This document shows positions 40,396-57,508 of a stretch of DNA of 64,000 bases, piece by piece; position 1 is the stretch's first letter, and every line of letters begins with the position of its first letter. The notes under the pieces are model-generated. The model was not told where the DNA came from and made no database searches. It saw only the letters and a program-made list of their open reading frames with translations. The stretch comes from an uncultured Armatimonadetes bacterium (GTDB taxonomy: Bacteria; Armatimonadota; Hebobacteria; Hebobacterales; Hebobacteraceae), in the NCBI GenBank assembly GCA_963716175.1, contig OY970296.1, positions 1,568,001 through 1,632,000 of the forward strand. The letters run 5' to 3'. The position numbers and the translations under genes were made by a program.

Positions 40396-40512
40396 GGTCT
40401 CCTCTCACGGTAAGAGCTGAGCGACAGGTCAGAGTATATCACGAACGGAAGGGGCTTCGCCCATCACGCGGGTTGTCCCTCGCTGCGCTCGCGACAAACC
40501 CGCGCCACCAGA

Positions 40513-40919: not shown

Positions 40920-40939
40920 CGTGTTACCCTCTCTTGGCT

Positions 40940-41049: not shown

Positions 41050-41083
41050 CCCCGCGCACCCATGTTGGCAGGAGGAGGAGAGC

Positions 41084-41698
41084 ATGCAGAAGATCACAGA
41101 CCGGCAGAGGAAAGTCCTGGAGGGCGTCTACCGAATTGCGCAGGAGAAGGGGTATCCGCCCACGGTGCGCGAGATCGGAGAGAAGCTGGGCCTGCGCTCG
41201 AGCTGCACTGTGCAGCGACACCTGGAGGCGCTGGAGCGCAAGGGTTACATCAGGCGCAGCCCCACCAAGGCGCGCTCGATCGAGATCGTGCAGGCGGAGG
41301 ACCCGACCATGGTGCCGGTGCCGATGGTGCCGGTGCCGGTGGTAGGCGCGGTGGCGGCAGGTCAGCCCATTCTGGCGGCCGAGAATATCGAGGAGGTCTT
41401 CCCCCTGCCGCGGGACATCGTGAAGGATGACCAGTGCTTCATGCTGCAGGTGAAGGGCGACTCGATGATCCAGGCGGGCATCTTCGACCGCGATTATGTG
41501 GTGGTGCGGCAGCAGCCGTATGCCGAGGACGGGGATATCGTGGTGGCACTGCTGGGGGAGGAGGCGACGGTCAAGTACTTCCGACGTCGGCGCAACCGCA
41601 TTTATCTGGATCCTGCCAACCCTTCCATGCAGCCGATCATCGCCACCGATGTCAAGATCATCGGCAAGGTGGTGATGAGCATACGGAGGTATGCTTGA
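41084..41698 (+). CDS. lexA: SOS repressor LexA
   Basis: GYPPTVREIG wHTH, VAAGQP cleavage site, GDSM (Ser), ATVK (Lys). Confidence 0.97.
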   Translation: MQKITDRQRKVLEGVYRIAQEKGYPPTVREIGEKLGLRSSCTVQRHLEALERKGYIRRSPTKARSIEIVQAEDPTMVPVPMVPVPVVGAVAAGQPILAAENIEEVFPLPRDIVKDDQCFMLQVKGDSMIQAGIFDRDYVVVRQQPYAEDGDIVVALLGEEATVKYFRRRRNRIYLDPANPSMQPIIATDVKIIGKVVMSIRRYA

Positions 41699-41723
41699 CG
41701 GGGGTGCGGGTGGTTGGTATGGT
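41695..41723 (+). promoter_or_regulatory. Putative tRNA promoter overlapping the lexA stop codon
   Basis: TTGACG-17 nt-TATGGT with TGn. Confidence 0.55.
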
Positions 41724-41761
41724 CAGGGGCAGGTCGCGGAGCCGGCGTACCGCGCAGGCGC

Positions 41762-41849
41762 GGAGGGGTGTCCGAGCGGTTGATGGAGACGGTCTTGAAA
41801 ACCGTTGGGGCGAAAGCCCTCGTGGGTTCGAATCCCACCCCCTCCGCCA
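41762..41849 (+). tRNA. tRNA-Ser (anticodon TGA)
   Basis: GGAGGGG/CCCCTCC acceptor stem, ACGGT-CTTGAAA-ACCGT anticodon arm, long variable arm, GGTTCGAATCC, 3' GCCA. Confidence 0.97.
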
Positions 41850-41899
41850 GATGGGTGAGATCATCGTGGACCCGTCTAAGATGCGCCTAGAGGCCTCTG

Positions 41900-41921
41900 G
41901 TGGGTTCGAACCCCACTCCCC
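41900..41921 (+). repeat. Degenerate copy of tRNA-Ser T-arm (att-like scar)
   Basis: GTGGGTTCGAACCCCACTCCCC vs tRNA GTGGGTTCGAATCCCACCCCCT (19/22). Confidence 0.6.
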
Positions 41922-42092
41922 CGGTCGAAAGTGACAGAGACGACAAACCCTCCGGCGTGGCCAAGCAGTGGCTATGTGCGTGCTCGTCCGTAGATAGGCT
42001 GATCCGCCCGGACGAGGGCCTCGAGGAACCCTGGGGAGGCCCTCGGGTGGCTCGCCACCAACACGCTGGCGAGCCCTTCGCCGCGCTGTGTA

Positions 42093-42210
42093 GCCGACGG
42101 CCCCGGCCACCTCCCGACTCCGGCTGCCCCCTCGGCTGGAGTCACTGTCCGGGGTTCGGCCGCGCGCCGGGACAGCAGCCGCGCCACGGGGCGATCACGG
42201 CCAGCCCCGT
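42093..42210 (+). repeat. Island repeat family D copy 1
   Basis: CCCGACTCCGGCT...CGGCTGGAGTCACTGTCCGGGG core; downstream CAGCCGCGCCA shared with copy 3. Confidence 0.85.
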
Positions 42211-42384
42211 CCATCCTCGGTGCCTCTCAGCGCAGGGGTATGCACGAGGGGAGAGAATACCATGAGAGGGGATCTAGGAGCATTCTGGCAGCCAGGTGAT
42301 CACCTGGAGAGCACGGGCCCAGAACAGGCAGGACTGCCTATCCTACGCGGCGCCCCTCGGTCGCCGCCTCAAGGAGGACGACCG

Positions 42385-44754
42385 GTGCGACTGGCGATCA
42401 TGTCCCTTCTCCTGCTGACCGCGGCGATCGCGCCTTCGGTGGCTCACTGGACCGTCGATGCCTCCGTGCCTGACTGGTGCTGGCGCGGCGACCTGCACTG
42501 GGCCGTCCACTACGGGACCGTCACGCGGTCCGATGTCGACCTGATGCTAAAGGCCCGGCAGAACCTGGACCACGGTGCGAGCTACGACTCCGATGCCACG
42601 ACCGCCTATGCCGCCCAGAGCGGCCTGCACGACCTCATCTACATCTGTTCCCGCACCTTCGTGGTCGACGACTACCAGAAGCACCCTGAGCTAAAGCAGG
42701 GGGTAGTGCGGGCCTTCGATGGCAGCGAGGTCCTGGCCTACGGTAACCCCGTCCGGCGTTTCGGGTGTGTGAACTCCCCCGAGTGGAAGGCGTTTGTGCT
42801 CGGTCAGGTCGATGAGGTGCAGGCGCGGCGCCATCCGGCCGGCATCTTCTTCGACAACGAAGCCTGGTTCGTGCAGTGCCACTGTCCCGTGTGCCGCGCG
42901 AAGTTCCGCGAGTACTCGCGCCAGCACTACGGGGTCGAGATGGAACTGCCGGAGCGAGTTGAGGTGTCCACCCAGGTGGGGCGCGCAGCGCAAATGTTCT
43001 TACTCGATTCGCAGACGGCGTTCCACCAGGCGCTGCTCGGCTATTGCCATCGACAGAGGCCGCGCCTGCTGTGTGTGCCCAACACCTGCGGGCTGGACGC
43101 CTGGCCGATGCACGGGATCGAGGAGGGCGTCACCGATCTGCCTTTCTACGAGTCCTCCAGCCATCCCCCCTTCGAGGACAGCCTCTATGCCTACAAGCTC
43201 GCCCTAGCCGCCGGGCACGGCCGGAACGTAGGACGGTTGATGTACCTGCCCTCTACGGTGGCGGGTGAGCGGGGCAAGCGCGTCTGGGTCGAGACCTGGC
43301 ACGCATTCGAGAACCCGTCGTCACCACTGGCGAAGGAGTTCGCGCTGGGGATCGCGGAGAGCGCGGCGTGCGACGCCACCTATGTCGCGAACTACGACCT
43401 CAGCCCATCGACGCCGATCACCGACACGAAGGACCCGTTCAACGTCAATATCTACCAGACCATGAACCGCTACTACGGGTTCCTGGTGCGGAACCGCGAG
43501 CTCTACCTCAATGCTGATCAGGGAGCGCTGCTGGCGATCCTGCACTCGGTGCCAACGGACCTCTGGACGCACTCGTCCGACCGTTGGGCGAAGCTGGCGC
43601 AGAGTCTGAACCGCGCCGGGGTGCCCTACGAGGTGATCGTGGAACAGGACCTGAAGGCCAACCTGCTGGCGCGCTACCGGGCCGTCATCATCTCCGGCGT
43701 CCGCGCCATCTCGGAAGAGGGGGCGGCACAACTGGCCGCCTACGTCAGGGCTGGCGGGCGAGTGCTCTTCGGCGGGGAGTGCGGCCTGACCGACGAACGG
43801 GGAGAGGCGCATCCGAGCCGGGCGATCGAGGAGCTGCGCCGCAGTGGGGGCCGGGTAATCAACGTGGCCGAGGACCTCTCTGAGCTCGATGGCAGCCGGC
43901 TGCGGGAGCTGGTGACGCGCCTGATGGGGGAGCCGGAGATCAACGTTCGCAACCCGAGCGGGAAACTCTCGATCAACGTGCTCTCCGAACCCGGGCAAGG
44001 GCTGCGAACGGTACATCTGCTCAACTACGATTTCACCTACGACCGGCCGGCGTGGGTGATCTCCGATGACGACCAGTTCTCGGAGGCCCGCAGCTACCTG
44101 TCGGATAGGGCCTGGCGCATCCGCAAGGTGCTGGTGGTCCCGGACCCGGCAGCGCTGGAGCATCCGACGCTGGAGATCATCGGGTCAGCGGCTACGGAGA
44201 AGGCGCTGTTCCGGCTGGTAGTGACCCTGAACGCCACCGATGTCGCCTCCTTCTCGGGGGACGAAGTGCGCACGAACCTCTCCGTGCCCCTGACGGCCGA
44301 CCGCCTCGTCAAGGGCGAGAACGAGGTGGTCCTGCGGGTGGAGGGCCAGCCCAACGTGATGAGCGAGTGGTATCAGGTGATGATCGACAAGGACGCGAAG
44401 ACGGGGCGCTCGTACTTCAGCACGGATGCTGGGAAGACGTGGGCCCAAGACGATCTCTCGCGGGACCCCCAACCGCAGCAGGGCGAGTTCATGATCCGTC
44501 TGGTAGACCCGGACAAGCGACCGTCGCAGCTCGAGTGGGAGAACATGTGCCACGTGCACCCGGCACGGGGCGTCCAAGTGTTCGTGGCCGGCGCTCGGGT
44601 GCCGTGGGCGCTGGCTCTGTCACCCACGGCGGACCCCAGGCGGATCTCCGGTTCGCGGGTGTCGGGCGGGGCCGAGTTCATCGTGGACGTGGAGACATAC
44701 ACCGTGCTGGCACTGGCGGACGATCCGAAGGCGCTGCAGGTGTACGGGTACTAG
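42385..44754 (+). CDS. Secreted glycoside-hydrolase-like protein (TIM barrel + beta-galactosidase trimerisation-like domain)
   Basis: Signal peptide; GIFFDNE...CHCPVCRAKF; GVPYEVI...YRAVII...YVRAGG; SD AAGGAGG before GTG. Confidence 0.7.
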   Translation: MRLAIMSLLLLTAAIAPSVAHWTVDASVPDWCWRGDLHWAVHYGTVTRSDVDLMLKARQNLDHGASYDSDATTAYAAQSGLHDLIYICSRTFVVDDYQKHPELKQGVVRAFDGSEVLAYGNPVRRFGCVNSPEWKAFVLGQVDEVQARRHPAGIFFDNEAWFVQCHCPVCRAKFREYSRQHYGVEMELPERVEVSTQVGRAAQMFLLDSQTAFHQALLGYCHRQRPRLLCVPNTCGLDAWPMHGIEEGVTDLPFYESSSHPPFEDSLYAYKLALAAGHGRNVGRLMYLPSTVAGERGKRVWVETWHAFENPSSPLAKEFALGIAESAACDATYVANYDLSPSTPITDTKDPFNVNIYQTMNRYYGFLVRNRELYLNADQGALLAILHSVPTDLWTHSSDRWAKLAQSLNRAGVPYEVIVEQDLKANLLARYRAVIISGVRAISEEGAAQLAAYVRAGGRVLFGGECGLTDERGEAHPSRAIEELRRSGGRVINVAEDLSELDGSRLRELVTRLMGEPEINVRNPSGKLSINVLSEPGQGLRTVHLLNYDFTYDRPAWVISDDDQFSEARSYLSDRAWRIRKVLVVPDPAALEHPTLEIIGSAATEKALFRLVVTLNATDVASFSGDEVRTNLSVPLTADRLVKGENEVVLRVEGQPNVMSEWYQVMIDKDAKTGRSYFSTDAGKTWAQDDLSRDPQPQQGEFMIRLVDPDKRPSQLEWENMCHVHPARGVQVFVAGARVPWALALSPTADPRRISGSRVSGGAEFIVDVETYTVLALADDPKALQVYGY

Positions 44755-45006
44755 GCCCGGTCAGCAAGCCCCGGTTGCTGCGAAAGGGTCGGTCTGCCTG
44801 TGCTTCCGACTCTGGCGCAGGTCGCGTTGCTCCCGCCCGCCATGTGTTGACAACATAGCTTACCGACGCTGCATCACCCGCGGAAGAGCGGGGAACCTTC
44901 GGCGCGGCCCGACTCGCGCTACGGGCAGCGGTCAGTGCTTGAGCGAAGCGTGCTGCTCTGACGACGCGCCCAGATACGCGACCAACCGCCCCGGAGGTGA
45001 GGGCAG

Positions 45007-45036
45007 TTGGTCGCAGGCTTCACCCTGATCGAGCTG
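45007..45036 (+). pseudogene. Truncated prepilin-type N-terminus
   Basis: SD GGAGGTG then TTG-GTC-GCA-GFTLIEL; the hydrophobic helix that should follow is absent. Confidence 0.5.
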
Positions 45037-45130
45037 AGACGATGCTGTCCCCGCAGCACTCGTATCTTCTCACGACATGATGTGGGCGACGTGAAAGCCA
45101 CTGGAAACTTCCGTGTAGGGACCGCTCCAG
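45037..45130 (-). mobile_element. Possible IS5-family transposase C-terminal remnant
   Basis: Minus-strand SFQWLSRRPHHVVRRYE resembles the ERSFAWL.R.RRL..RYE motif; abuts the prepilin truncation. Confidence 0.35.
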
Positions 45131-45463
45131 TGGAGAAACCGCTGTGAGGCACGGCATGCCCAGCCAAGTCCCGCAGGGGGTCTGTCCGCGTCCGCGCCGG
45201 ATGAACATCCTGTGTCAGCAGAGACACGTCCTGCTGTGCCGCCCAAGAGAAGAGCCGGGGAGAGCCCACGTCCGCGGGCCCCGCCCTGGCTCCATGCGTA
45301 GGGGCCAACCCACACTGAAACCGCCCTGAGCCGTTCCGTTGGGAGCAGCTAGCGCTGGGGTGATGTGGCCTCTTGCCGGCATGAGACCGCGATCCGGGCG
45401 GTTCGCCGGCGGAATGGTCTCATAGGGCGTGCGCGTGCAGTGCGTTGCCGGGCGCGAGGAAGA

Positions 45464-45510
45464 GCCCCAGGCACCCCCGACTCCGGCTACCCGCTCGGCG
45501 CGGAGTCACG
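45464..45510 (+). repeat. Island repeat family D copy 2 (3'-truncated)
   Basis: GCACCCCCGACTCCGGCTACCCGCTCGGCGCGGAGTCA. Confidence 0.8.
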
Positions 45511-45791
45511 ATCTTCTCAGGGCGAAGCGGCCGCTTCAGCCGGTCTCAGGGTCGCCCGACATGCGCAGGTGGTCCACGTGTACCGTTCACTGACAGGCGT
45601 ACCCAACAATGTGCTGGAACCGGCCCCCGGCTGTCGTCCTGGGCACATGAGAACCTGAGATGCGTCTCTGTGCCCCCTGGACCGCCTTACCGTCTCGCAC
45701 CTGGAGCCGGAGGCTGGCGGAGGTATGCATAGGCGAGCAGGCGAATTCCCTATCTTCCGCGATGCGCGTGCTGATCACCAGGAGCTACGCG

Positions 45792-46904
45792 ATGAGTGTG
45801 TTGGCGCCGATCCTAATCGCTTGTGTTTTCGGGATGGTGCTGCATTCCGCCGCCCAGGCCGACGACGAGCTGACATGGCATGACGCGACCAGCCTGCGAA
45901 TCGAAGGGAAGGCATGGCAGGACACTGAGAGCTTCTTCGACCGGCTCCCCGCACGTGCGCTGAGCCACGTGAACGGCGATCTCAAGGGACTGGCCAGACT
46001 CAGCGCTGGCATGGCAATCCGCTTCACCACTGACTCCGACACGCTCCGGGTGCGCTGGAGCCTGGGAGATCCAGTCTACGTCATGACCCATATGGCAGCT
46101 ACGGGCACCAGCGGCCTCGACCTGTACGTGAAGGGGGCCGACGGCCACTGGGCCTACGCCGGGACGGGGCGCCCGGAGGACAAGCGAGACAACGAGGCGA
46201 CGTTCTTCTCGAACCGGCCGAAGGCCGAGCGGACGTACCTGCTCTACCTGCCTCTCTTCAACAAACTGACTTCTCTCAGCATCGGAGTGACCGCCGGCTC
46301 CTCCTTGGAGACGGTTGGGAACGGCGCCGGCAAGCGCGTCGTGTTCTATGGCACGAGTATTGTCCACGGCGGTTGTGCCTCCCGGCCGGGGATGGCCTAT
46401 CCCGCAATCATCGGGCGTGCCCTCGACTGCGAGACTGTCAACCTCGGCTTCTCGGGCAGCGCCAGAATGGAGCCTGTGGTCTGCGATCTGCTGGCTGAGC
46501 TCAACCCGGATGTCTTCGTCATCGACGCGCTCCCCAACATGCACGAGGAGCCGATCACCGAGAGGACGCTGAACCTGGTCCGGACCATCCGCAAGAGCTG
46601 TCCGACCACGCCCATCGTGCTCGTCGGGAACATCACCTATCAGACCACCCGCGCCTTTGGGGGTGACGGCGGCGAGGTCCGCGAGATCAACGCGCGATTC
46701 CGAAAGGCCTACGACCAGCTCCTCGCCGAAGGCTGCGCCGGGCTCCTGTATGTTCCCGGGCGCAACCTGCTCGGGGCTGACGGTGAGGGGACGGTTGACG
46801 GCACTCACCCCACAGACTTGGGCTTCAGCAGGATGGCCGAGGTGATCGGTGCGGCAGTGGCAGACGCGCTCGCCCAGGCTGCCTCAGCCGAGGAGAAGCC
46901 ATGA
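45792..46904 (+). CDS. Secreted SGNH/GDSL hydrolase with GxDLY N-terminal domain
   Basis: SGLDLY, FYGTSI.HG, NLGFSG, DGTHPTDLG. Confidence 0.9.
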   Translation: MSVLAPILIACVFGMVLHSAAQADDELTWHDATSLRIEGKAWQDTESFFDRLPARALSHVNGDLKGLARLSAGMAIRFTTDSDTLRVRWSLGDPVYVMTHMAATGTSGLDLYVKGADGHWAYAGTGRPEDKRDNEATFFSNRPKAERTYLLYLPLFNKLTSLSIGVTAGSSLETVGNGAGKRVVFYGTSIVHGGCASRPGMAYPAIIGRALDCETVNLGFSGSARMEPVVCDLLAELNPDVFVIDALPNMHEEPITERTLNLVRTIRKSCPTTPIVLVGNITYQTTRAFGGDGGEVREINARFRKAYDQLLAEGCAGLLYVPGRNLLGADGEGTVDGTHPTDLGFSRMAEVIGAAVADALAQAASAEEKP

Positions 46905-47116
46905 ACAAGGTGTCGGTTACGCTGGAAGAGGATGCCCTGCTAGAGCTCCACGCCGTGCTTCTGGACGATGACCCGGTCGCGGCGCTGGAGTTCCTGAAGA
47001 GGCACATCGCCCCCAAGATCCCGCGCAAGGGAAGCGCGGCCTGTGATTCCACTCGGCTCAATCCGTTCATTCTGCGCGCGAGGCCTGGGCAACGCGGCGG
47101 CGTAGAGCCCGGATGA
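46901..47116 (+). CDS. Hypothetical protein (71 aa)
   Basis: ATGA overlap with upstream gene, GAGGAG SD, natural codon usage. Confidence 0.6.
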   Translation: MNKVSVTLEEDALLELHAVLLDDDPVAALEFLKRHIAPKIPRKGSAACDSTRLNPFILRARPGQRGGVEPG

Positions 47117-47325
47117 TGTCCTGCGCGCCCCGGCCGCAGCAAGAGGATCGCAGACAGATCCCGGCGCTGGCATCGCCAGGGGCCCCGATTGTCCAGTGTG
47201 TGGGTGTCAAGTTAGCATGAAAGCATGATGCACCCCGGCGGTGCCGCTGATAGGATCAGCGATCAGGCACCTCGTCCCGGCTGCGAGACTCAGCTCGAGC
47301 GGGAGCACCGGGTGACTGGCGCAAC

Positions 47326-47464
47326 TTGTCGGTGTCAACCGCCCGTGAAGCCGACCCCGTGCACCTCCGACTCCGGCTAGCCCCTCAACTCGGGGTCATC
47401 AATCGGAGTTCTGTCGCGTGTGGGCACATCAGCCGCGCCATGGGAGCGATTGCGGGCAGGCCCG
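47326..47464 (+). repeat. Island repeat family D copy 3 (longest)
   Basis: TTGTCGGTGTCAACCG.CCGTGAAGCCG shared with copy 5, then core, then 3' extension shared with copy 1. Confidence 0.85.
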
Positions 47465-47606
47465 CTCAGTCGAATCCCCCCTGGGCAGCCCTCCAGTCCC
47501 GGCAGCCCGCTAGGATAGGGCTATCAGCGAGTGCGGGGAACACAGCGAGAGAGCTTCCGGGAACCCCCTCGAAGCCAGATGGGGTGGTCGACAGGACTCC
47601 TGGGTC

Positions 47607-47658
47607 TTGACAGTCGGCCGGTTCCTGCGTATGCTACTCTCGCCCAAACATATGTTTG
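47607..47658 (+). promoter_or_regulatory. sigma70 promoter with LexA-type operator just downstream of -10
   Basis: TTGACA-17-TATGCT (47607-47635); CAAACatatGTTTG (47645-47658) immediately before AGGAGG. Confidence 0.7.
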
Positions 47659-47672
47659 CCAGGAGGGGAACC

Positions 47673-49793
47673 ATGGCTTCTGTATGTCAGGTGGCCGTGG
47701 GGGCGGTGCTGGGGGTGGGCCTGCTGGCGCTGTCGGCGCCGATAGGTGCCGAAGGAAGCGGAGGGGCATCTGGGGCGCGGCCTGATTACGGCAAGCTCGT
47801 ACTGCGCGGCAAGGGCATGGCCCAGGACTCGTTCTCGCTCGCCCTTCAGGCGGCCGCCCGCCTCCTGGGACGAGACGCTGACTACGAGACCATCGCAGCT
47901 ATGACCACCAGCGTCTTCTCGCCCGCCATCACCCCGGGTGAGGACTGCACGTCCTGGTGGCACGTGGACGCGCGTTACCTCGCTACGGCCGCGGACCTCC
48001 AGCCGGTCTCCGAGCTGATCGGGGTGCGCCTGAGGCGCCTCGATGTCCCTGTGTTCAAGGGCGATGGGAAGGACGAGGAGGAGGCGCGCCGCCACCGTCG
48101 CGACGTGGCGAAGCTCCTCGCCCAGACCATGGATGCCGGTGCCGTCATCGTTGTCAGTGGCAGATGGGAACCGACAGGAGGGCCGCATGGCTTCGTGCCC
48201 TGGGGATGGGCCGGCATCGTCACAGAGGCGAGGCCCGACGGCACGATTCTCGGCGCCTGCCTGAACGGTGAGAAGGACAACCCGCTGCGCTGGTTTGCCC
48301 CGATGTGGGCGGTCTCGGCCGGTGAGGTGACGGCCACGCCTGCCCAAGCCAGCCGGGCGACGCTGCGTCAGGCCGTCTCGCGGATCCGCGGCACAGGCCG
48401 CTTCCAGCGCGGCGAGTCCAGCGTCTACGGCCTTGATGCGATGGATCTGTGGATCAAACAGATGGAGCAGGTGCCAGGGTTCTGTGCCCAGTGCCAGGAG
48501 AGGGGCGGGCGCGGTTGGACTGACGCCGTCGACAATGCCGTGGCGATGCGCGAGCGCGCGGCGGCCGCTGCCTCCTACCTGCGCCGCGTTGGGTCCACCT
48601 TCTCGCCCGCTGGGCGCCCCTACCTGGAGTCCGCCGCGCAGCACTACGATCGCATCCGGCAGTTGCTCAACCCGGCGCTAACCGGCGAGGGTGGCGAGAA
48701 GTTCGAGCAGTTCGTCGGGGATCTTGCCAAGCAGAAGGCGCACGCCCAGACCGTGCTGCGGCCGGCGCGCTCCGAGCTGTCCGCGGCCGCCGACGACATG
48801 GACAAGGCGCTCGCCGTTCCGCTTCCGGAGGCGCGACTCCTCCGTGATGTGCCGGCCGGCAAGGGCGATGGCAACGAATTCGTCCGCGGCCTGGAGGTCA
48901 TCCTGGATCACGCGGGCACGCCCGTGGACTACGACACGCTGATGGGCGATCTGGGACTTGCCTTCATCCTGCAGGCCAGCGATCAGGTCCCAAGGTACAA
49001 CGGCGCGCTGGACGTCGGCTGGTGGCCTCTCGACCCGGCCTGCATACCTAGCTATCTCGACTTCGTGAGCCGCACTGCTGGGCGCTGCATCGACTTCCTC
49101 CACCTCGAGACCGTCTCCGAAGCAGAGCTACCACAGGCCTTCCGAGAGAGAGCGCTGCCGCGTGCGGAAGCCACCCTCAACAACGGCTCCCCCTTCCTGG
49201 CGATAGACTGCTGCTGGAAGGTCGTCACCGGCTGCGACGGAGGCGAGCCCCCGCTGCTGGGGTTCCTGGCCAGCGCGGGGAGCGCAGAACCGGCCCGCTT
49301 CCCGTCGTACCCATGGGCCTTCGCCTTCCTCGATGACACTGTGCCGAAGGTGGACCGCCGCACCGCGGATCGAGAGGCGCTGCGGCACGCGGTCGCACTC
49401 AGCCGCGACGAGGTCGCGATGCCGTGGGGATTCGTCACCGGGCAGAAGGCCTACGCACTGTGGGCGCAGACCCTGCGGGACACTGAGCACCTGGGTGAGG
49501 CGCGCTGGCACTGTAACATGGTGAGGCATCTCACCCTCAACCGCACCAGCGCCACCGCCTACCTCCGCGGCATGGTGGAGCGACAACCAGCCGCGGCCCC
49601 TCGTCTGTTGGCCGCCGCCGCGTGCTACGAGTGTACTCTAGCACGGCTCAAGGAGGCCGACCTCAGTGAAGCCGCTCTCATGTCCAGCGACGGACGCAAG
49701 AAGCTGGCCGCGCTGGTGGAAGGGATCGCCCGGATCGAGGCGGATGCCGTCGGTGAGCTGGAGGCGGCGGTCGCCGCGATGCCGGCCCGCTGA
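47673..49793 (+). CDS. Exported hypothetical protein with two tandem homologous domains
   Basis: Signal-like N-terminus; paired motifs ADYETI/VDYDTL, SWW/GWW, YGLDAMDLW/TGQKAYALW, ASYLRR/TAYLRG. Confidence 0.75.
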   Translation: MASVCQVAVGAVLGVGLLALSAPIGAEGSGGASGARPDYGKLVLRGKGMAQDSFSLALQAAARLLGRDADYETIAAMTTSVFSPAITPGEDCTSWWHVDARYLATAADLQPVSELIGVRLRRLDVPVFKGDGKDEEEARRHRRDVAKLLAQTMDAGAVIVVSGRWEPTGGPHGFVPWGWAGIVTEARPDGTILGACLNGEKDNPLRWFAPMWAVSAGEVTATPAQASRATLRQAVSRIRGTGRFQRGESSVYGLDAMDLWIKQMEQVPGFCAQCQERGGRGWTDAVDNAVAMRERAAAAASYLRRVGSTFSPAGRPYLESAAQHYDRIRQLLNPALTGEGGEKFEQFVGDLAKQKAHAQTVLRPARSELSAAADDMDKALAVPLPEARLLRDVPAGKGDGNEFVRGLEVILDHAGTPVDYDTLMGDLGLAFILQASDQVPRYNGALDVGWWPLDPACIPSYLDFVSRTAGRCIDFLHLETVSEAELPQAFRERALPRAEATLNNGSPFLAIDCCWKVVTGCDGGEPPLLGFLASAGSAEPARFPSYPWAFAFLDDTVPKVDRRTADREALRHAVALSRDEVAMPWGFVTGQKAYALWAQTLRDTEHLGEARWHCNMVRHLTLNRTSATAYLRGMVERQPAAAPRLLAAAACYECTLARLKEADLSEAALMSSDGRKKLAALVEGIARIEADAVGELEAAVAAMPAR

Positions 49794-49818
49794 TCATTCC
49801 TCGGAGAGGGAGGGAAAC

Positions 49819-50877
49819 ATGCCATCATGCGCTAGCCCGGAGGCCCTCACACGCGAACTGACGCAGCACGGCCATTCCCTGGGCGTGGACCTCGTCGGCT
49901 GCACTTCGTCCGCGCCCTTCGTCGTCGGCGAGGCGGCGCGAGAGATACTGCCGGAGGCGATCCTTCCCGGCGCACGCTCCATCGTCGTTGCCGCCTGCGC
50001 AACTAGCGGGGTCGATCGCTACCAGCCCTCCCGACCCGGCGCTCCTCGCGGCCGGCTGGGCCCGTGGACACGCGCCTCCGTGCCCGCCTACGACCATACG
50101 CTCGGCGTCATCACCGAGTTCCTCACCGCGCGCGGCTATCGCACGGCCGCCGGCCACGAGCTTCCACTCAAGGCGACCGCGGTCCGCGCGGGGATTGCGT
50201 ACTACGGCAAGAACAGCATCGTCCACGCCGAGGGTTTCGGCTCGTACCTCGAACTGGCGGCCGCACTGACAGATGCCGAGTTGATCTGCACTGATCGCCC
50301 GGTTCAGTCCTCCGACTGCCCGGACGACTGCCGCGCGTGCATGGAGGCGTGCCCGACGGGCGCGCTCGCGGAGCCGTTCCGGCTCACTCGCGACAAGTGC
50401 ATCTGCCATTACCTCTGGGGCGCGCCGATTCCGCGCGAGCATAGACAGGCTGTTGGCGATCTCATCTTCCGGTGCGACGCGTGCCAGCAAGCCTGCCCAC
50501 GCAATCACAAGCTGTGCGGGGGTCGCGAGCTCGCCTACCGTCCTCAGGAAGGAGATGACTCGCCGGTGCTGCTGCCCTTGCTGCTCGGAGACGAGACCTA
50601 CTACCGAAGCGCCATTCCGGAGTTCGTGCAGCAGGCCGGGCTCGACACCGTACGCCGCAACGCGGCCATCGCAGCTGGGAACATAGGCGATGTGGCGACC
50701 CTGCCTGCCCTGCTCACGTGCCTGAGCTCCGCTCACGATCTCACCCGCATCGCCGCCGCCTGGGCCCTCGGCCGCTTCAGCGGCACAGAAGTCGCCCGCG
50801 CCCTTGCCGAGCGGCTCGCCGTAGAGGAGAACGCCGAAGTCCGCGACGAGATTGCCTGTGCCCTCCACACAGACTGA
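49819..50877 (+). CDS. Epoxyqueuosine reductase (QueG)-like 2x[4Fe-4S] protein with HEAT repeats
   Basis: AVRAGIAYYGKN, GFGSY, CRACMEACPTGAL, CDACQQACP, RRNAAIAAGN, AAWALG. Confidence 0.8.
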   Translation: MPSCASPEALTRELTQHGHSLGVDLVGCTSSAPFVVGEAAREILPEAILPGARSIVVAACATSGVDRYQPSRPGAPRGRLGPWTRASVPAYDHTLGVITEFLTARGYRTAAGHELPLKATAVRAGIAYYGKNSIVHAEGFGSYLELAAALTDAELICTDRPVQSSDCPDDCRACMEACPTGALAEPFRLTRDKCICHYLWGAPIPREHRQAVGDLIFRCDACQQACPRNHKLCGGRELAYRPQEGDDSPVLLPLLLGDETYYRSAIPEFVQQAGLDTVRRNAAIAAGNIGDVATLPALLTCLSSAHDLTRIAAAWALGRFSGTEVARALAERLAVEENAEVRDEIACALHTD

Positions 50878-50939
50878 GGCGCCCTCCCGCGCCCGCAGAG
50901 CCAGCTAGCGCAGGACTGATCCTCGCCCGCAGGTGGCGG

Positions 50940-51020
50940 GCCGACGGCCTCTGGCGTCGCCGACTCCGGCTACCCACTCGGTTCGGGTCGCTGGTCGGGG
51001 TCTCGTCGCGCGTACGGCAG
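50940..51020 (+). repeat. Island repeat family D copy 4
   Basis: CCGACTCCGGCTACCCACTCGGTTCGGGTCGCTGGTCGGGG...GTCGCG. Confidence 0.8.
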
Positions 51021-51362
51021 GCGTGCTCGTCGAAGGGGAACGGCGCCCGAAGGCGCCGCCTTACCGGTCCCAGGTAGTGCGAGGGGTGAGCTGAGGCAAG
51101 CCCGGGACGCTCCCAGGACGGTCCTACGGGTCCTCGGCACCTACAGAGGATCCCGCCAGAACAAGGCTAGGGTGGTGCAACAGCGAAGTAATCACGACAC
51201 ACGGTCCTACGGGCGCCCAACACCCCCAGGAGGTCCCACGGAGGCAGGACTCAACTCTGGGACTTTCACCCCTTCTCGTGACGCCCGCCATGGCGTACAG
51301 TGCTCAGCGACGGTAGCCGATGAGCCCGGCCCAACACTTTCGGCCGGAGTGGAGGTGTCGCC

Positions 51363-52334
51363 ATGAAGGCCAGTCTAGCGCCTTGCCGTTTCCCTTTCGG
51401 CGTGGTTCGCTCTGCGCTGACGCTGGCTGTAGTTCTGCCGGCCGCGCTCTGCCTCGGAGGCTGCGGCCCTGTGCCAGAGACATCTTGGTCTCCGACAGAT
51501 CAGGAGATTGCCTACCTCGACAACGGCGCCCTCCGCATCCTGGACATGGCCACGAAACAGTCGCGGGCGCTCGACACCGGACCCGGCGCGGTCTGCTCTC
51601 CTTCCTGGTCTCCCGATGGCAAGACGATCGCCTTCTACTCGGCGGTGTTCGGCAAGGAGCCGAGCGTATCGTTGCGGGCCATTGATCTGTCCTCCGGCCA
51701 GGTGCGCACTCTTGCCTCGGACGTCTGGCCCTTACCCACTGAGGCAAGCGGCGGCACGACGCACCCGGGCCAGTCGCCCGAGGAGGCCCTCGAGGAGGCT
51801 CAGCGCGAGGAACTCTCCGGGCTGATGCTTTTCGGCACTATCCCTTGGAGCCCGGACAGCGCGCGCCTCGCCTGCTCGGCGGGGCCTATCAGCCCCGGCT
51901 CGCTGCTCGTCGTTGACGCGGCCACCGCCGCCGCGACTCCTATCACCCAGCACACGAAAGTGCCGGGCATGATGATGATGGCGGCCTGGTCCCCTGACGG
52001 CAAGCGAATTGCCTAGCTGCTGTGCCCGGGTGATCCGGCTGAGGCTCAGTCCGGGTCAGACGAGCCGCCGGGCAGCAACAGCTTCTGGGTGTACGACCTA
52101 ACAACCGGCGCCGCTGATCGGTTATACGATGTGCCGACCGATAGCTCGGGCGATACCTATGTGATCGGTCCGCGACTCGAATGGTCGGCCGACTCCACCC
52201 GGATCGGTTTCATCATGGAGGACGTTCACAATGAGGGGCGGGCGATCGCCTACACGATCGCGGCGGAGCCGGGGGCGACGGTGCGAGAGGAGATGCAGGG
52301 CATCACTCCCATTGTCCGTGTCAACCGGCCGTGA
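51363..52334 (+). pseudogene. TolB/PD40 beta-propeller lipoprotein pseudogene
   Basis: LGGC lipobox, repeated WSPD motifs; in-frame TAG at 52014-52016 (KRIA*), frame continues and runs into repeat D copy 5. Confidence 0.75.
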
Positions 52335-52411
52335 AGCCGGCCTCGGGCACCCCCGACTCGGGCTGCCCTCTCGGCTTGGAGTCGCTGTCCGGGGGTTCGT
52401 CGCGTATGGGA
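52312..52411 (+). repeat. Island repeat family D copy 5
   Basis: TTGTCCGTGTCAACCGGCCGTGAAGCCG...CCCCGACTCGGGCT...CGGCTTGGAGTCGCTGTCCGGGG. Confidence 0.85.
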
Positions 52412-52548
52412 TCTGGGGGAGGGAGGGGCTGAGCCCTGCGACACCTGACCAGACTGGGTGCCACACCCGGCCTGGCTACGTAGAGTCCCGAATGCCGTCT
52501 GCATCCTCCTGGCTTGACAGCTTCGACAGGCCGAGTATCCTCAGGCCG

Positions 52549-53745
52549 ATGACCGTCACCCGGCGCCACACGAAGCTGCGTGCCCTTGGCGCTGCCCTGG
52601 CCGTTTTGGCTGGCCTGAGCTTGGCGCCAGGTGCGACCAGTGTGTCCGGTCCCAGAGAGGATGCCTACGCCATGAGTAGTGCACCGAAGATGCGCTTCGA
52701 GCATCGCATCATCGATCCCGAGCCGCCACGCGATCCGCATATCAAGGCGGCCGGCGACATCGATGGCGACGGTAACCCCGATGTCGTCGTCGCCAGTAGT
52801 GACGGCGGCCCTCTGGTCTGGTACCGGAACCCGGACTGGAGCAGGCACGTGGTTCACCCTTCCGGGAAATGGAGCTGTTATGCCCGGGTTGTGGACATGG
52901 ACGGGGATGGCGATGCCGACATCCTGATCTCGGAGTGGTACACCCACAACCGATTGGAGTGGTACGAGAACCCCCGGCCGGACGGTGACCCCACCAAGGA
53001 CCCTTGGCACCAGCACATCATCGGGAGCCCGCGGGCTCACGATATCTGCAGCGGCGACATCGACGGCGATGGACAGATGGAGATCGCGACCCGCGCCCAA
53101 GGTGAGGACGGACGCGAGATCGTCCTCTGGAAGCGCGCCGGCGGCGGCTCGTGGTCGAGGCGCAGCCTCCCGTGTCCCGCAGGCGAAGGGCTGAGCATCG
53201 GCAGCATCGCCGGGGACGGGCGGCTGGATATCGTGATCGGCGGCCGCTGGTACGAAGCGCCGGAGGACATCATGGCCGGCCACTGGCAGGAGCATGTCTT
53301 CGCCGACTGGCCTGCGGACGCGGTAGTGGCGGTGGCCGATGTGGACAGGGAGGGCCGGGCGGACATCGTGCTCACCCGCTCCGAGGGCGCTCACCGTCTC
53401 TCGTGGTTTGGTGCGCCACCCGACCCAAAGCGCGGCCAATGGTCGGAGCACGTGGTGGACGATTCCGTGGACTTCGCTCACAGCCTGGTAGTGTGCGACA
53501 TTGACGGCGACGGTCAGCTCGACATCGTCACCGCCGAGATGCACCAGTCGCCGCGCAAGCGTGTCATGGTCTACCTGGGCGGTCGGAGGGGGACCGAATG
53601 GACACGGGAGGTCATCGCCGAGACGGGTTCGCATAACGTTTGTGTTGTCCGTCTGGGGGATACCGGAAGGATCGGCATCGTCGGGGCAAACTGGAGCGGC
53701 GGGTACCAGCCGCTTGAGCTGTGGGAACAGATAGCTGGTGGATAG
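52549..53745 (+). CDS. Secreted FG-GAP/VCBS repeat beta-propeller protein
   Basis: Repeated GDIDGDG.PD/LEWYEN; TTGACA-16-TATCCT ends 7 nt before the ATG (possibly leaderless). Confidence 0.88.
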   Translation: MTVTRRHTKLRALGAALAVLAGLSLAPGATSVSGPREDAYAMSSAPKMRFEHRIIDPEPPRDPHIKAAGDIDGDGNPDVVVASSDGGPLVWYRNPDWSRHVVHPSGKWSCYARVVDMDGDGDADILISEWYTHNRLEWYENPRPDGDPTKDPWHQHIIGSPRAHDICSGDIDGDGQMEIATRAQGEDGREIVLWKRAGGGSWSRRSLPCPAGEGLSIGSIAGDGRLDIVIGGRWYEAPEDIMAGHWQEHVFADWPADAVVAVADVDREGRADIVLTRSEGAHRLSWFGAPPDPKRGQWSEHVVDDSVDFAHSLVVCDIDGDGQLDIVTAEMHQSPRKRVMVYLGGRRGTEWTREVIAETGSHNVCVVRLGDTGRIGIVGANWSGGYQPLELWEQIAGG

Positions 53746-53788
53746 GGCGGCCTCGGTTCCCCCCAACTGGGGTATAGCAAGGCGCGGC

Positions 53789-54931
53789 ATGCGATCGGCG
53801 GCAGTTGTGCTGCTGGCGCTGTGCGCGGCGGCAGCGCCCGGAGGAGGTTATGCGGTGGCTGGAGGTAAGCTCGCGTTCGAGCATCAGGTGGTGGACGCCG
53901 ACCCGCCCAGTGGGACCGGATGCTGCCTCGACGTTTGCGCATTGGGTGATCTCGACGGCGACGGCCGCACCGATATCGTGGTGGGCTCTCAGGAGTCGAT
54001 CGGGCTGGCCTGGTACCACAACCCGCACTGGAAGCGCTACCTCATCGGTCCGGGCGAGTTCACCACCGATGGTGAGGTCGCCGACATCGACGGGGACGGC
54101 AAGGCCGAGGTCATCGCGAGCTGCATGCAGCGCGATCAGATCGAGTGGTATGAGCGAGTCGGTGATCCGTTCCGCAGCGAGGGCTGGAAGCGTCATCGCA
54201 TCGGCGGCGGGTGGGCGCACGACCTGGCCGTCGGCGACATCAACGGCGACGGCCGCCTCGACGTGATCGCCTTCTCGAAATACGTCACCCCGCCGCACCT
54301 GGTGTGGTACGAGGCGCCGCCCGATCCGCGGAGCGAGTGGATCCGCCACCAGATCGACCAGCCCGCGGGCGAGGGGCTGGACGTGAGCGACCTCAATGGT
54401 GACGGCCATCTCGAGATTGTGGCAGGGCGGTACTGGTACCAGAATGTGGATGGTCGTGGCCTCAAGTGGGAGAAGCGCGAGCTAACGTCGGACTGGACCC
54501 ACGATTGCCGCGTCGTCATCGCCGACATGAATGGCGATAGGAGGCCCGACATCGTGCTGAGCTACTCCGAGGGCAAGGGCCGCCTCTCCTGGTTCGAGAA
54601 CCCGACCTGGCGCGAGCACCGCATCGATGCGGGGCCGCTGGAGGGGGCGCACAGCTTGGGGGTGGCCGACTTCGATGGAGACGGCAGGCTGGACGTGATG
54701 GCCGGGGAGATGCATAGCAGCAGCACGCGGCGCGTCCTGGTGTACCGGAACCTATCGCGCGGCGACAGGTGGCAGCGAATGGTGCTCGCGACCACCGGCA
54801 CTCACAACGCGCGGGTCGGCCGTCTGGCTCCTGGCGCGCTACCGGCCATCGTGGGGAAGAACTACGACGGTTCGAAGCAGGTCGAGATTTGGCAGGCGGT
54901 CACCGGGCCGGCTGGGGAGGTGCGGCGGTAA
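53789..54931 (+). CDS. Secreted FG-GAP/VCBS repeat protein (paralog of upstream gene)
   Basis: GDLDGDGRTD, DINGDGRLD, AHSL..ADFDGDG, GEMH. Confidence 0.88.
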   Translation: MRSAAVVLLALCAAAAPGGGYAVAGGKLAFEHQVVDADPPSGTGCCLDVCALGDLDGDGRTDIVVGSQESIGLAWYHNPHWKRYLIGPGEFTTDGEVADIDGDGKAEVIASCMQRDQIEWYERVGDPFRSEGWKRHRIGGGWAHDLAVGDINGDGRLDVIAFSKYVTPPHLVWYEAPPDPRSEWIRHQIDQPAGEGLDVSDLNGDGHLEIVAGRYWYQNVDGRGLKWEKRELTSDWTHDCRVVIADMNGDRRPDIVLSYSEGKGRLSWFENPTWREHRIDAGPLEGAHSLGVADFDGDGRLDVMAGEMHSSSTRRVLVYRNLSRGDRWQRMVLATTGTHNARVGRLAPGALPAIVGKNYDGSKQVEIWQAVTGPAGEVRR

Positions 54932-54987
54932 TGCTCGCCGGCGTATGCGCGCGGACGAGCCACAGGCAGCGACGGGAGGAGCCAGTG

Positions 54988-56373
54988 ATGGTTATCGGAC
55001 CGATGGGATGGGGTGTAGCAGCCTGCCTGTTGGTGCTGCTCTGTGCCGGCGCCGCCACCGCGGGGCCCGCCGGGCTGCCACGGCTGAAGGTGAGTGAGAA
55101 CGGCCGCTTCCTGGTGACGGAGGAGGGAAAGCCCTTCTTCTGGCTCGGGGACACCGCCTGGCTGCTGTTCGCGCGGCTGAGCAAGGAGGAAGCCTGGCAC
55201 TACCTGAAGGCCCGTGCTGCACAGGGCTTCACGGTCATCCAGGCCATGACTGTGCCTTGGGATGCGCGGCACGTGCCGAACGCGGCCGGTGAGCTGGCCT
55301 TCCTCGACGGCGATCCCGCCAAGCCCAACGAGCGGTACTTCGCGCACGTGGACGCTGTGGTGGAGATGGCGGCTCGACTCGGCCTCTACATGGGCCTGCT
55401 GCCGACCTGGGGGGACGCCTGGAACCCGTGGGATGGAGGCACGGAGCTGCTCAGCCCGGAGAGCGCCGAGGTCTACGGGGAGTTCCTGGGCCGGCGCTAC
55501 CGGGACAGGCCGGTGATCTGGATCCTGGGCGGTGACCGGAACCCGGAGAACGAGCGCCACCGCGCCACCGTGCGGGCGCTGGCGAGAGGGCTGCGCCGGG
55601 GCGATGGCGGGCGTCACCTGATGACCTTCCACCCGAGCGGCTGGAGCAGTTCGTCGCGCTGGTTCCATGGGGATGACTGGCTGGCCTCGAATATGATGCA
55701 GAGCGGCCACTCCACGCGCAACGCGCGGAACTACGAGCTGATCGCGGCAGACTACGCGCGCACGCCCGCGAAGCCGTGTCTGGACGGGGAAGCGGACTAT
55801 GAGGATCATCCGGTAGACTGGAAGCCGGAGAACGGCTACTTCGACGACTATGATGTCCGGAAGACCGCCTACTGGGCGGTGTTTGCAGGTGCCCACGGGC
55901 ACACGTATGGCTGCAACGATGTCTGGCAGTTCTACAGGACGGGTGGCCAACCGGAGACCAACGCGCGCACGCCATGGCGGGAAGCGCTCCTGCTCCCAGG
56001 CGCGCGCCAGATGCATCACCTGCGCGCGCTGATGGAGTCGCGGCCGTTCCTCACGCGCGTCCCGGACCAGAGTCTGATTGTGGGGGCCGCCGGGGATGGG
56101 GCGCGCCATGTGCACGCCACCCGCGACGCGAGCGGCTCCTACGCGATGCTCTACGTGCCGACGGCTGGCCAGACGGTGACGGTGGACAGCAGCGAGCTGT
56201 CCGGGAAGCGGCTGAAGGCCTGGTGGTATGACCCGCGTACGGGGAAGGCCACCGCGCTCAAGGACGACTTCCTCGTCGGCGGGAAGCTGGAGTTCACCAC
56301 CCCGGCCGAGGGGCCGGACTGGGTGCTCGTGCTCGACGACGCGGCGAAGAGGTACCCGAAGCCCGGAAGCTGA
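54988..56373 (+). CDS. DUF4038/GH140 (apiosidase-like) glycoside hydrolase with C-terminal collagen-binding-like domain
   Basis: PFFWLGDTAW, IWILGGD, TFHP, QSGH, KPCLDGE..YE, GHTYG, WYDPRTG, DWVLVL. Confidence 0.88.
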   Translation: MVIGPMGWGVAACLLVLLCAGAATAGPAGLPRLKVSENGRFLVTEEGKPFFWLGDTAWLLFARLSKEEAWHYLKARAAQGFTVIQAMTVPWDARHVPNAAGELAFLDGDPAKPNERYFAHVDAVVEMAARLGLYMGLLPTWGDAWNPWDGGTELLSPESAEVYGEFLGRRYRDRPVIWILGGDRNPENERHRATVRALARGLRRGDGGRHLMTFHPSGWSSSSRWFHGDDWLASNMMQSGHSTRNARNYELIAADYARTPAKPCLDGEADYEDHPVDWKPENGYFDDYDVRKTAYWAVFAGAHGHTYGCNDVWQFYRTGGQPETNARTPWREALLLPGARQMHHLRALMESRPFLTRVPDQSLIVGAAGDGARHVHATRDASGSYAMLYVPTAGQTVTVDSSELSGKRLKAWWYDPRTGKATALKDDFLVGGKLEFTTPAEGPDWVLVLDDAAKRYPKPGS

Positions 56374-56494
56374 TGAGTGCCGTCTGAGGTCCCAGCGCCA
56401 CCGGCTGGGGCATGCCCCAGCAACCGCTGACATAGGCGCCGACGTCTCGCAGGCCCCGGCCAAAGTCCGCCGCGCGACTCAGGGAGGCGGGCTG

Positions 56495-56573
56495 GACGGC
56501 GGCCCCATGCCCCCCCGACTCCGGCTACCGCTTCGGCTTGGAGTCAGTGGCCGGGGTGGCGTCGGGTGTGGGA
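56495..56573 (+). repeat. Island repeat family D copy 6
   Basis: CCCCGACTCCGGCTACCGCTTCGGCTTGGAGTCAGTGGCCGGGG...GTGTGGG. Confidence 0.85.
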
Positions 56574-56836
56574 AGGGAGACCGGCTGCCGGCTCTGACTG
56601 CGACTGCATCCCTGGCCGGATTGCTCTGGAATCAGTGGCCAGCTTCGAGCGGAATCCGCAGATATGCCCAGCTGTGAACAGGAAGCGCGAAACGGTACTC
56701 ATGGGAGCAAGGATAGCACCGACTCAGCCGGGAAGGAGACCGCCCGGAAGTGCCCCGGATAGGGTTTCTGGGGAGGGCAAGGGGGTGCCGAAGCGATACC
56801 GAACCGACCCTCTATTGCTCAGGGAGGAGGTAGGAC

Positions 56837-57508
56837 ATGAAGCGACTCATTGCCGTGCTCATTGTGGTGGCGGCGATGGCCGTGCCCACCGCCGTGGTCG
56901 GCGGGGCGACGGCGCCGGCCGCCGGTCCGCAGGAGGTCACGCTTCCCGCGCCGGAGACCAAGGGAGGGATGTCGCTGAACGAAGCTCTGTCGCGCCGGCG
57001 TTCGGTACGCGGCTTCGACGCGAAGACCCTCGATCAGCAGCAGCTGGGGCAGTTGCTGTGGGCGACCCAGGGCATCACCGACCCGGCCACCGGGCACCGG
57101 ACGTCGCCCTCCGCGATGGCGATGTATCCGCTCACAGTGTACGTCTGCACGGCCGACGGCGTGTTCACCTACGAGCCGAAGGGCCACAAGCTGGTGCGCG
57201 TCTCCACCGAAGATCGGCGCGCCGATGTCACCCAGCCCCCGCGGGGAGGACAGCCGGCCCCGGTGAGCTTCGTGTTCACCGGTGACCCGAGCAAGTTCGG
57301 GTCGCGCCTCCCGGATCGGGCCGCCGCGTTCGTCTATCTGGAGGTCGGGCACGCGGCCGAGAACTTGGCCCTGGAGGCGACCGCGCTGGGGCTCGCAACC
57401 GTGACCCAAGGCGGCATCGACGCGGCGAAGGTGTCGAAGGCGCTCAACCTGCCGCAGGGCACGCTGGTAGTCTACACCATGCCCGTGGGCTATCCCGTCG
57501 CGCGGTAG
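56837..57508 (+). CDS. Exported SagB/ThcOx-type nitroreductase family protein
   Basis: Signal peptide; RRRSVR, QLLWATQG, RTSPSA, EVGHAAEN. Confidence 0.88.
   Translation: MKRLIAVLIVVAAMAVPTAVVGGATAPAAGPQEVTLPAPETKGGMSLNEALSRRRSVRGFDAKTLDQQQLGQLLWATQGITDPATGHRTSPSAMAMYPLTVYVCTADGVFTYEPKGHKLVRVSTEDRRADVTQPPRGGQPAPVSFVFTGDPSKFGSRLPDRAAAFVYLEVGHAAENLALEATALGLATVTQGGIDAAKVSKALNLPQGTLVVYTMPVGYPVAR

Follow-up and report, generated by a model that had tools for sequence, protein, structure and literature searches.

What are the repeated sequences that divide the genes of this locus into separate units, and how have they come to lie between units whose order differs from one genome to another? The stretch analysed here (the window) comprises 64,000 nt of contig OY970296.1 from an uncultured Armatimonadetes bacterium, whose genome (G000) spans 4.56 Mb on a single contig. 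It contains six copies of an approximately 85 nt, GC-rich, imperfect palindrome, called the head below. A preliminary description of the window took them for recombination sites or element ends of an integron-like gene-capture array or, alternatively, for a cis-regulatory RNA. The present analysis favors another answer: the heads are, on balance, probably a lineage-restricted, non-coding, polar mosaic repeat that resembles bacterial interspersed mosaic elements (BIMEs) and transposable elements of the miniature inverted-repeat type (MITEs) and serves as portable homology. The starting points are its observed copy number, modularity and polarity, the lack of an RNA-type signature, the reshuffling of the units that it separates, and its targeting by an insertion sequence (IS) of the IS481 family. 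On this reading the repeat family, which is polar, would be new and would have expanded in two genera. Coordinates in the range 42096-57508 follow the window's numbering, values in Mb and seven-digit positions follow the genome's, and other G and L codes denote further genomes and loci.

A profile of the six window copies (E<1e-3) finds 101 heads in the genome, arranged in about seven clusters (0.72-0.80, 1.03-1.09, 1.61-1.62, 1.71-1.73, 1.90-2.10, 2.26-2.30 and 2.79-2.82 Mb), where the third is the window's own and the 1.90-2.10 Mb cluster holds about 60 heads. The median spacing of heads is 1970 nt. The island had been described as lying downstream of tRNA-Ser; it is not peculiar to that locus, being one cluster of a 101-copy family. 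The accompanying statement that no copies occur outside the island stands for the window, where the next best match scores 12.1 bits, and fails for the genome as a whole. That next best match is a marginal, head-like sequence at window positions 63566-63608 (+ strand, E 0.011). Gene calls come from a crude codon-score caller (3914 genes), making all gene-based counts approximate; head midpoints fall inside called genes in 6 of 101 cases, all of them over-long frames.

The family's distribution is narrow. In a phylum-wide sample, 5 of 401 genomes match, all from one family. Within that family (15 genomes), pattern matches number 60 in G000, 40 in G045, 13 in G265, and one each in G151, G169 and G212, while model-based counts in the related metagenome-assembled genomes (MAGs) G265 and G045 are 41 and 83. 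Across the species genomes searched, exact matches to a 21-mer from the head are limited to these MAGs and a single contig labelled Solirubrobacterales (L061:6667-6687), which may reflect a binning error or transfer; at least 119 metagenome contigs carry this core 21-mer. Relatives hold dense arrays with units of 0.5-0.9 kb, and in a more distant relative the small units set apart by heads comprise a GreA-like gene and one for a Roadblock/LC7 protein, beside glnA. The part of the literature covered yielded no paper joining Armatimonadota with integrons, repetitive extragenic palindromes (REPs) or MITEs.

The repeat is modular. Its modules were defined from alignments that included the flanks, followed by profile searches of the genome. 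The head has GACTCC...GGAGTC arms and two unpaired ACCCCC motifs on its top strand, and it may be joined to a 5′ extension, A or B, and, on its 3′ side, to a tail of type L (~180 nt) or type S (~90 nt). Among the 101 heads, 16 have an A extension, 8 a B extension, 30 an L-tail and 15 an S-tail; genome-wide, there are 27 matches to A, 9 to B, 58 to L (more than 20 of them without a head) and 24 to S. The A extension, an approximately 30 nt sequence like a terminal inverted repeat (TIR), is the sharp left boundary that had been noticed at copies 3 and 5 of the window, and that boundary is real, forming a module of its own. Because the S-tail ends in the A extension's reverse complement, A-head-S assemblies possess ~30 nt terminal inverted repeats; these begin with TGT, and the assemblies measure ~215-250 nt. 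The arrays follow a simple grammar: an optional A or B, a head, an optional L or S, and then 1-10 genes of either strand, repeated. The same grammar recurs in G265 and in metagenome contigs, and the single copy in G212 is a full A-head-L assembly before a gene that, from its translation read by eye, may encode a catalase. Plasmid and phage collections contain no match to A-head-L.

The tails differ in what follows them. Of the 30 L-tails attached to heads, 22 precede a same-strand gene, whereas 11 of the 15 attached S-tails precede one on the opposite strand, and across all 58 L-tails, 45 lie directly 5′ of a same-strand gene, with unrelated gene functions. As an example of reversed genes, three consecutive units consist of a head, an S-tail and a reversed gene; their class-III aminotransferase and enolase-superfamily genes are real by Pfam and lie on the opposite strand.

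Several smaller observations concern the modules themselves. Solo L-tails in G000 lie at 35.6, 75.0, 98.4, 136.6, 157.2, 195.7 and 215.1 kb, at 1463, 2105.6, 2304.7, 2789.9, 2861.8, 2959.6 and 4524.1 kb, and at L036:6381-6555. At the end of the L-tail is a GGGAG...ATG motif, but the frames that it opens are all very short and unconserved; a 183-aa open reading frame (ORF) in L088 is spurious, being a translation of the L-tail. The heads at 1917872 and 2261685 share an identical 16 nt deletion between the two ACCCCC direct repeats. An ORF beside a solo A extension, considered as a mobilizing gene, is single-copy and belongs to no Pfam family.

Heads keep one direction within arrays, irrespective of the genes around them. 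In G000, 87 of the 90 pairs of adjacent heads no more than 20 kb apart share one orientation, which places the matches in arrays and not scattered at random orientation. Among loci of relatives and metagenomes with at least two heads, 46 of 49 are co-oriented; with near-identical loci merged, 29 of 31 independent clusters are. The downstream gene is on the head's strand in 65 of 101 cases and on the opposite strand in 36, the upstream gene is on the head's strand in 60 of 101, and the neighbor classes comprise 41 tandem, 24 divergent and 19 convergent arrangements and 17 with both genes opposite. Such constancy over arrays of up to 200 kb, with a flip at the origin region and a location exactly between reshuffled gene units, is unusual among interspersed repeats, which are otherwise common.

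The direction of the heads may also be linked to replication. Cumulative GC skew has its minimum at ~1.15 Mb and its maximum at ~3.55 Mb, and dnaA is located at 1.343 Mb. Heads are on the − strand at 0.72-1.09 Mb and on the + strand at 1.61-2.8 Mb; the flip occurs between 1.087 and 1.610 Mb, the interval that holds both the skew minimum and dnaA. A leading-strand rule is obeyed by 91 of 101 heads, compared to 2211 of 3914 genes, and on either side of the origin region the top strand of the conforming heads has leading-strand sense, which makes it the template of the lagging strand. The exceptions are a cluster at 1.713-1.727 Mb (5 heads), a segment at 2.056-2.059 Mb (3 heads), which repeats part of the 2.26 Mb region in inverted form, and two single heads. 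The link between head direction and replication is suggestive, and the strand bias points to a single-stranded-DNA step at the fork, while no HUH enzyme tracks the repeats. The skew itself is noisy in G000, its minimum being offset from dnaA, and shows several local reversals, which suggests past inversions.

Gene units have been reshuffled at the repeats. In G265, a member of another genus of the same family, unit 3 of the window is present with its head, L-tail and 700-aa gene, and the unit upstream of it is a different one; a head precedes the nitroreductase unit in G265 as it does in G000, with different upstream neighbors; and two units found at 2.104-2.109 Mb in G000 appear in reverse order with heads between them. 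G265 also has the 265-aa gene that lies 5′ of the window's tRNA-Ser, with no synteny beyond it and no tRNA there. Further, L088 and L111, two metagenome contigs, share 1247 nt at 99.84% identity rightward from the 5′ edge of a head and are unrelated leftward, where one has an A extension and the other a B extension. When matches between metagenome contigs and G000 are counted (at least 85% identity over at least 400 nt), 11 of 44 internal match ends lie within 60 nt of a module, an enrichment over the expected 7.4%. Units in relatives thus have different neighbors, with junctions at or within the repeat modules, and the arrays offer a case for studying how accessory gene units move in a phylum with almost no genetics.

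The junctions are not confined to one place. Within G000, the points where duplicated flanks break off vary, both inside the head and next to it: in the loop (heads 1914523 and 2007027), in the 3′ arm (2279837 versus 789413 and 2267663), at the 5′ edge (1033581 versus 1976373; 2259778 versus 1949996) and at the 3′ edge (2057735 versus 1065328; 2259778 versus 2058847). Other junctions fall inside the L-tail, inside the S-tail and at the outer edge of the A extension, and no single exact crossover position in the head was found among the junctions examined.

The head is also a target for mobile elements. An IS481-family element with a 379-aa transposase gene (Pfam rve, HTH_32 and LZ_Tnp_IS481) is present in four copies (1904532-1905671, 1974024-1975163, 1725620-1726759 and 1934792-1936085; loci L003, L010, L002 and L007), which are 99.0-99.6% identical. 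Three of them occupy the same position in the head loop; the left flanks of these heads differ, and in every case element and head are on opposite strands. The two interrupted heads that are covered on both sides carry a 5-bp duplication, whereas the fourth element copy has a weak head half (E 0.2-0.34) on each side. The head loop appears to be a sequence- or structure-specific target of this element. A related short element with a 193-aa ORF follows the 3′ arm in three heads, and a metagenome contig contains it at 95-97% identity, while the flank there reaches no more than 80-88%.

Within the window, the heads and their setting are as follows. Bit scores refer to R1, a sequence model built from 73 genome heads, with which the window was scanned with filters off.

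41762-41849, + strand: tRNA-Ser (tga), 246 nt 5′ of the first head
42096-42174, + strand: head copy 1, 64.0 bits
42174-42319 (genome 1610174-1610319), + strand: shortened L-tail after copy 1, nhmmer 87.6 bits
42385-44754, + strand: unit 1 gene with a weak GH42-like Pfam match; start from the crude gene caller
45464-45512, + strand: head copy 2, consisting of a 5′ half (match over model positions 6-54 of 85), 45.9 bits
45762-46904, + strand: unit 2 gene, GxDLY and GDSL/SGNH esterase (Pfam)
47316-47353, + strand: A extension of copy 3 (TIR-like 5′ extension), from its module profile
47350-47427, + strand: head copy 3, 58.8 bits
47429-47596, + strand: L-tail after copy 3, from its module profile
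47607-47635, + strand: sigma-70-like promoter, 10/12 consensus positions, 3′ of head 3 and its L-tail
47691-50877, + strand: unit 3, a 700-aa protein without a Pfam family, then a Fer4_16 and HEAT (QueG-like) protein
50943-51022, + strand: head copy 4, 50.3 bits
51363-52016, + strand: unit 4, a PD40 (TolB-like) repeat protein (Pfam)
52299-52340, + strand: A extension of copy 5, from its module profile
52336-52414, + strand: head copy 5, 71.9 bits
52514-52541, + strand: sigma-70-like promoter, 10/12, ~100 nt 3′ of head 5
52600-56373, + strand: unit 5, two FG-GAP proteins and an apiosidase/GH140 protein (Pfam); first start approximate
56498-56577, + strand: head copy 6, 65.3 bits
56837-57508, + strand: unit 6, a nitroreductase (Pfam)

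Copy 1 thus consists of a head and L-tail, copy 3 of A, head and L-tail, copy 5 of A and head, and copies 2, 4 and 6 of a head alone. The six same-strand copies were described correctly: their core motif has 6 window matches at up to 3 mismatches, compared to 0.92 expected, none of 100 shuffles reaches 6, and the heads score 45.9-71.9 bits. At 2.7 bits and E 9.4, the degraded seventh copy supposed to lie near 44908 is noise. Each copy does head a + strand unit, and Pfam agrees broadly with the gene names proposed from the letters. However, the claim that the A boundary of copy 5 cuts off the TolB-like gene is not substantiated: the PD40 frame stops at 52016, 283 nt before it; an 81-aa frame between that stop and the boundary has no Pfam match. 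The start of unit 5 is approximate because a long frame from 52231 overruns head 5. Three sigma-70-like sites occur within 41500-57500, two of them 100-180 nt 3′ of heads 3 and 5, and the one after head 3 is kept in the G265 copy of unit 3. No evidence supports membership of the tRNA-Ser in the repeat system. Contigs of four public DNA runs, aligned to 40001-59000, are pieces of 150-1100 nt with every joint side shorter than 35 nt, and hence carry no information on the gain or loss of units.

The claim that the repeat acts as a cis-regulatory RNA, a structured 5′ leader of the downstream genes, is largely refuted, and this origin is very improbable. All six window heads lie 200-400 nt 5′ of + strand genes, and the 45 of 58 L-tails before a same-strand gene fit a leader as well. 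However, 36 of 101 heads are followed by a gene on the opposite strand, promoter-like sites lie 3′ of heads 3 and 5, and the functions of the downstream genes are unrelated. The structural evidence also speaks against it. The fold proposed for the window copies is weak, with dinucleotide-shuffle z-scores of -1.53, -0.49, -1.01, -1.35, +0.51 and -2.48 and registers that differ among copies; the mean folding z-score of the 73 heads against mononucleotide shuffles is -0.51. A compensatory change reported in copy 3 gains no statistical support from the 73 heads: for the three-helix structure, 84.3% of cells pair, compared to 84.8% in shuffles (467 of the 500 reach as high a value), and pairs changed on both sides number 5, fewer than the 8.2 in shuffles. 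An alternative helix reaches 91.6% pairing versus 91.4% in shuffles, and RNAalifold returns no consensus structure for the 73 heads and only 3 pairs for 28 L-tails. In the window, Rfam 15 reports only the tRNA-Ser at gathering scores, and even with E values up to 10 no match falls on the repeats.

The enzymes of the genome bear on the remaining explanations. As had been noted, the window contains no tyrosine or serine recombinase domain, and the proposal to look for a recombinase beside the arrays found none consistently adjoining them in a genome-wide Pfam domain scan (27 Phage_integrase and 8 Resolvase matches). None of 28 matches to the integron integrase model TIGR02249 passes (best 90 bits, cut-off 265), and a tblastn search with 27 recombinase and transposase proteins of G000 against 101 loci of relatives and metagenomes gives only sporadic matches, mostly fragments. 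The most prominent candidate is a multi-copy, 316-aa, Xer-like tyrosine recombinase, with 84-89% identical copies in G000, G265 and G045 and one copy each, with an internal stop codon, in G106 and G160. Its conserved unit of ~1.1 kb holds only this gene (in G000 at 808700-809841, which is L021:8700-9841, and at 2242368-2243385; seven units in G265). Truncated copies occur inside head arrays at 2027195, 1952893, 2102488-2103166 and 2113942, and the gene is on the strand opposite to nearby heads. As an engine of the arrays it was rejected, with no head within ~6 kb in 12 of 13 loci. A 10-6-10 palindrome 5′ of one copy is unique to that copy. Just 3′ of the gene, L021:9908-10477 (G000 809908-810477) is a ~560 nt part of a gene family with more than 40 copies (65-72% DNA identity). 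Elsewhere, G000 holds three copies of an adjacent tyrosine recombinase pair or trio (2841.6-2843.3, 2959.8-2961.5 and 3032.2-3033.9 kb), probably a recombinase-borne mobile element. The Y1 transposase, with 5 Y1_Tnp matches above cut-off in the genome, was also rejected as a partner: none of the 5 is near a head or module, and across the 15 family genomes there is no correlation (G115 has 7 Y1 matches and 0 heads; G265 has 1 and 41).

If the heads are a BIME- or MITE-like mosaic repeat, they would spread or persist via a step that depends on the strand and may involve a hairpin formed in single-stranded DNA at the fork. The chief effect of the copies would be to supply portable homology: ectopic recombination or gene conversion between them would excise, insert and permute the intervening gene units. 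Ectopic exchange between copies would let arrays grow in direct orientation, and units would be permuted, with breakpoints scattered over the modules, because the repeat acts as portable homology for such exchange. Several results weigh against this reading. No target-site duplication is seen at the 11 inspected ends of A-head-L and A-head-S assemblies, the TIR-like A extension is on only 16 of 101 heads, and no transposase or recombinase is tied to the repeat family, nor was an autonomous element with A-type ends found. Most synteny break ends (33 of 44) lie away from modules. Ordinary MITEs and REPs are less polar than the heads, and BIMEs alternate in orientation. As to polarity, counts of gene orientation depend on the crude caller, no more than about 7 of 9 arrays conform, in a single closed genome, and GC skew over 29 sampled stretches of G265 shows no pattern and gives no polarity information.

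The claim of a recombination-site array survives in part: co-oriented arrays do separate units whose neighbors differ in relatives, but integron-like, site-specific capture is not borne out. The corresponding explanation, a non-canonical integron-like cassette system in which the heads are sites of a site-specific recombinase other than IntI, is unlikely. Here, circular units with one head would insert at other heads, producing direct-repeat arrays with genes either way. Consistent with this, arrays are co-oriented whatever the gene strand, their median spacing is 1970 nt with 0.5-0.9 kb units in relatives, the units carry predicted promoters of their own, and they are permuted at heads between genomes. 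The 99.84%-identical contigs diverge sharply at a head edge, and three junctions fit a crossover in a shared CGGCC stretch at the head's 5′ edge. An IS targets the head, as the IS1111-attC group targets attC sites in integrons, and the Xer-like recombinase, found mainly in head-rich genomes, is the best candidate enzyme. However, there is no IntI, the Xer-like gene has no head within ~6 kb in 12 of 13 loci and a conserved unit of only ~1.1 kb, and the palindrome beside it is unique to one copy. Moreover, other junctions fall in the loop, the 3′ arm, the 3′ edge, the L-tail, the S-tail and outside the A extension; head structure is not conserved beyond the consensus; copies of the L, S and A modules are found apart from heads too; and there are many clusters instead of one platform. 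That an integrase-independent or Xer-like-driven system has captured and permuted self-promoted units of either orientation at the heads has a small chance of being correct; if true, it would be an independently arisen integron analogue in Armatimonadota working on several-kilobase units.

Rather improbable, too, is an origin of the heads as single-strand hairpin transposon remnants moved in trans by an HUH/Y1 transposase, in the manner of REPs with their REP-associated tyrosine transposases (RAYTs) or of IS200/IS605. Insertion into the lagging-strand template, and hence a replication-linked orientation bias, is typical of IS200/IS605-type transposons, and the top strand lies on that template in 91 of 101 heads. 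The top strand also folds slightly better (lower energy in 50 of 73 heads, with G-U pairs in the consensus stem), and the genome does have its 5 Y1_Tnp matches. These, however, are near no head or module, and Y1 numbers do not follow head numbers across 15 genomes; some assemblies have terminal inverted repeats, which are absent from that class, and no conserved flanking tetranucleotide was seen. A polar protein-binding or architectural DNA site (a boundary, insulator or terminator-like signal) kept by selection is quite doubtful. It would account for heads that are strictly intergenic, between self-promoted units, for ACCCCC motifs and arms conserved beyond structural need, and for the tail type that tracks the next gene's strand (L, 22 of 30 same; S, 11 of 15 opposite). 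Nevertheless, 40-100 copies in two genera and single copies elsewhere is a pattern typical of an expanding selfish repeat, half, deleted and IS-split heads are tolerated, the stem lacks a T-run, and there is no known partner protein.

A mosaic repeat of this kind matters in several respects. It provides a tractable case for the origin of repeat polarity, whether through replication-coupled spread, array growth from circular intermediates or selection against inversions. The repeats can serve as a marker of the lineage in metagenomes from wetlands and sediments. They also break short-read assemblies of such genomes, and many G045 contigs end at heads.

Compared to known systems, the heads share features with several. 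The integron comparison concerns attC arrays, clusters of attC sites without an integrase (CALINs) and the repeats of the Vibrio cholerae super-integron. Like attC sites, heads are imperfect palindromes (~60-140 nt for such sites) in direct orientation that separate short gene units, the units differ between relatives, the sites are alike within a host, and they are targets of particular IS elements. A CALIN needs no IntI beside its array. The heads differ from attC sites in lacking IntI, a single crossover point and the R″ and R′ boxes. In particular, attC sites end in R″ (RYYYAAC) and R′ (GTTRRRY) boxes, whereas the 73-head consensus ends GACGG.../...CCGTCGCG, where GTTCCGT does not fit GTTRRRY. 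Further, the family forms many clusters and not one platform, its units are predicted to carry promoters of their own and often hold more than one gene, the head is joined to further repeat modules, which are found by themselves as well, and its structure is not conserved while its sequence varies.

The IS200/IS605 group is likewise known for hairpin-bearing, non-coding copies oriented with replication; the heads differ from it in having no Y1 transposase link and, in some assemblies, inverted terminal repeats. A-head-S assemblies resemble MITEs in being non-coding, multi-copy and bounded by ~30 nt inverted repeats, and differ from them in that neither a target-site duplication nor an autonomous partner was found, in the A end present on only 16 of 101 heads and in their polar orientation. 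Further features are shared with the BIMEs and REPs of enterobacteria and pseudomonads, the pneumococcal BOX elements and the Neisseria intergenic mosaic elements: like these, heads are extragenic, GC-rich palindromic units in about 100 copies, they form mosaics with other short motifs, and they are lineage-restricted, targeted by IS elements and substrates for recombination. No RAYT partner was found for the heads, unlike the REP/RAYT pairing. And whereas the REPs in BIMEs alternate, the heads are co-oriented over up to 200 kb and cluster in arrays that separate single gene units.

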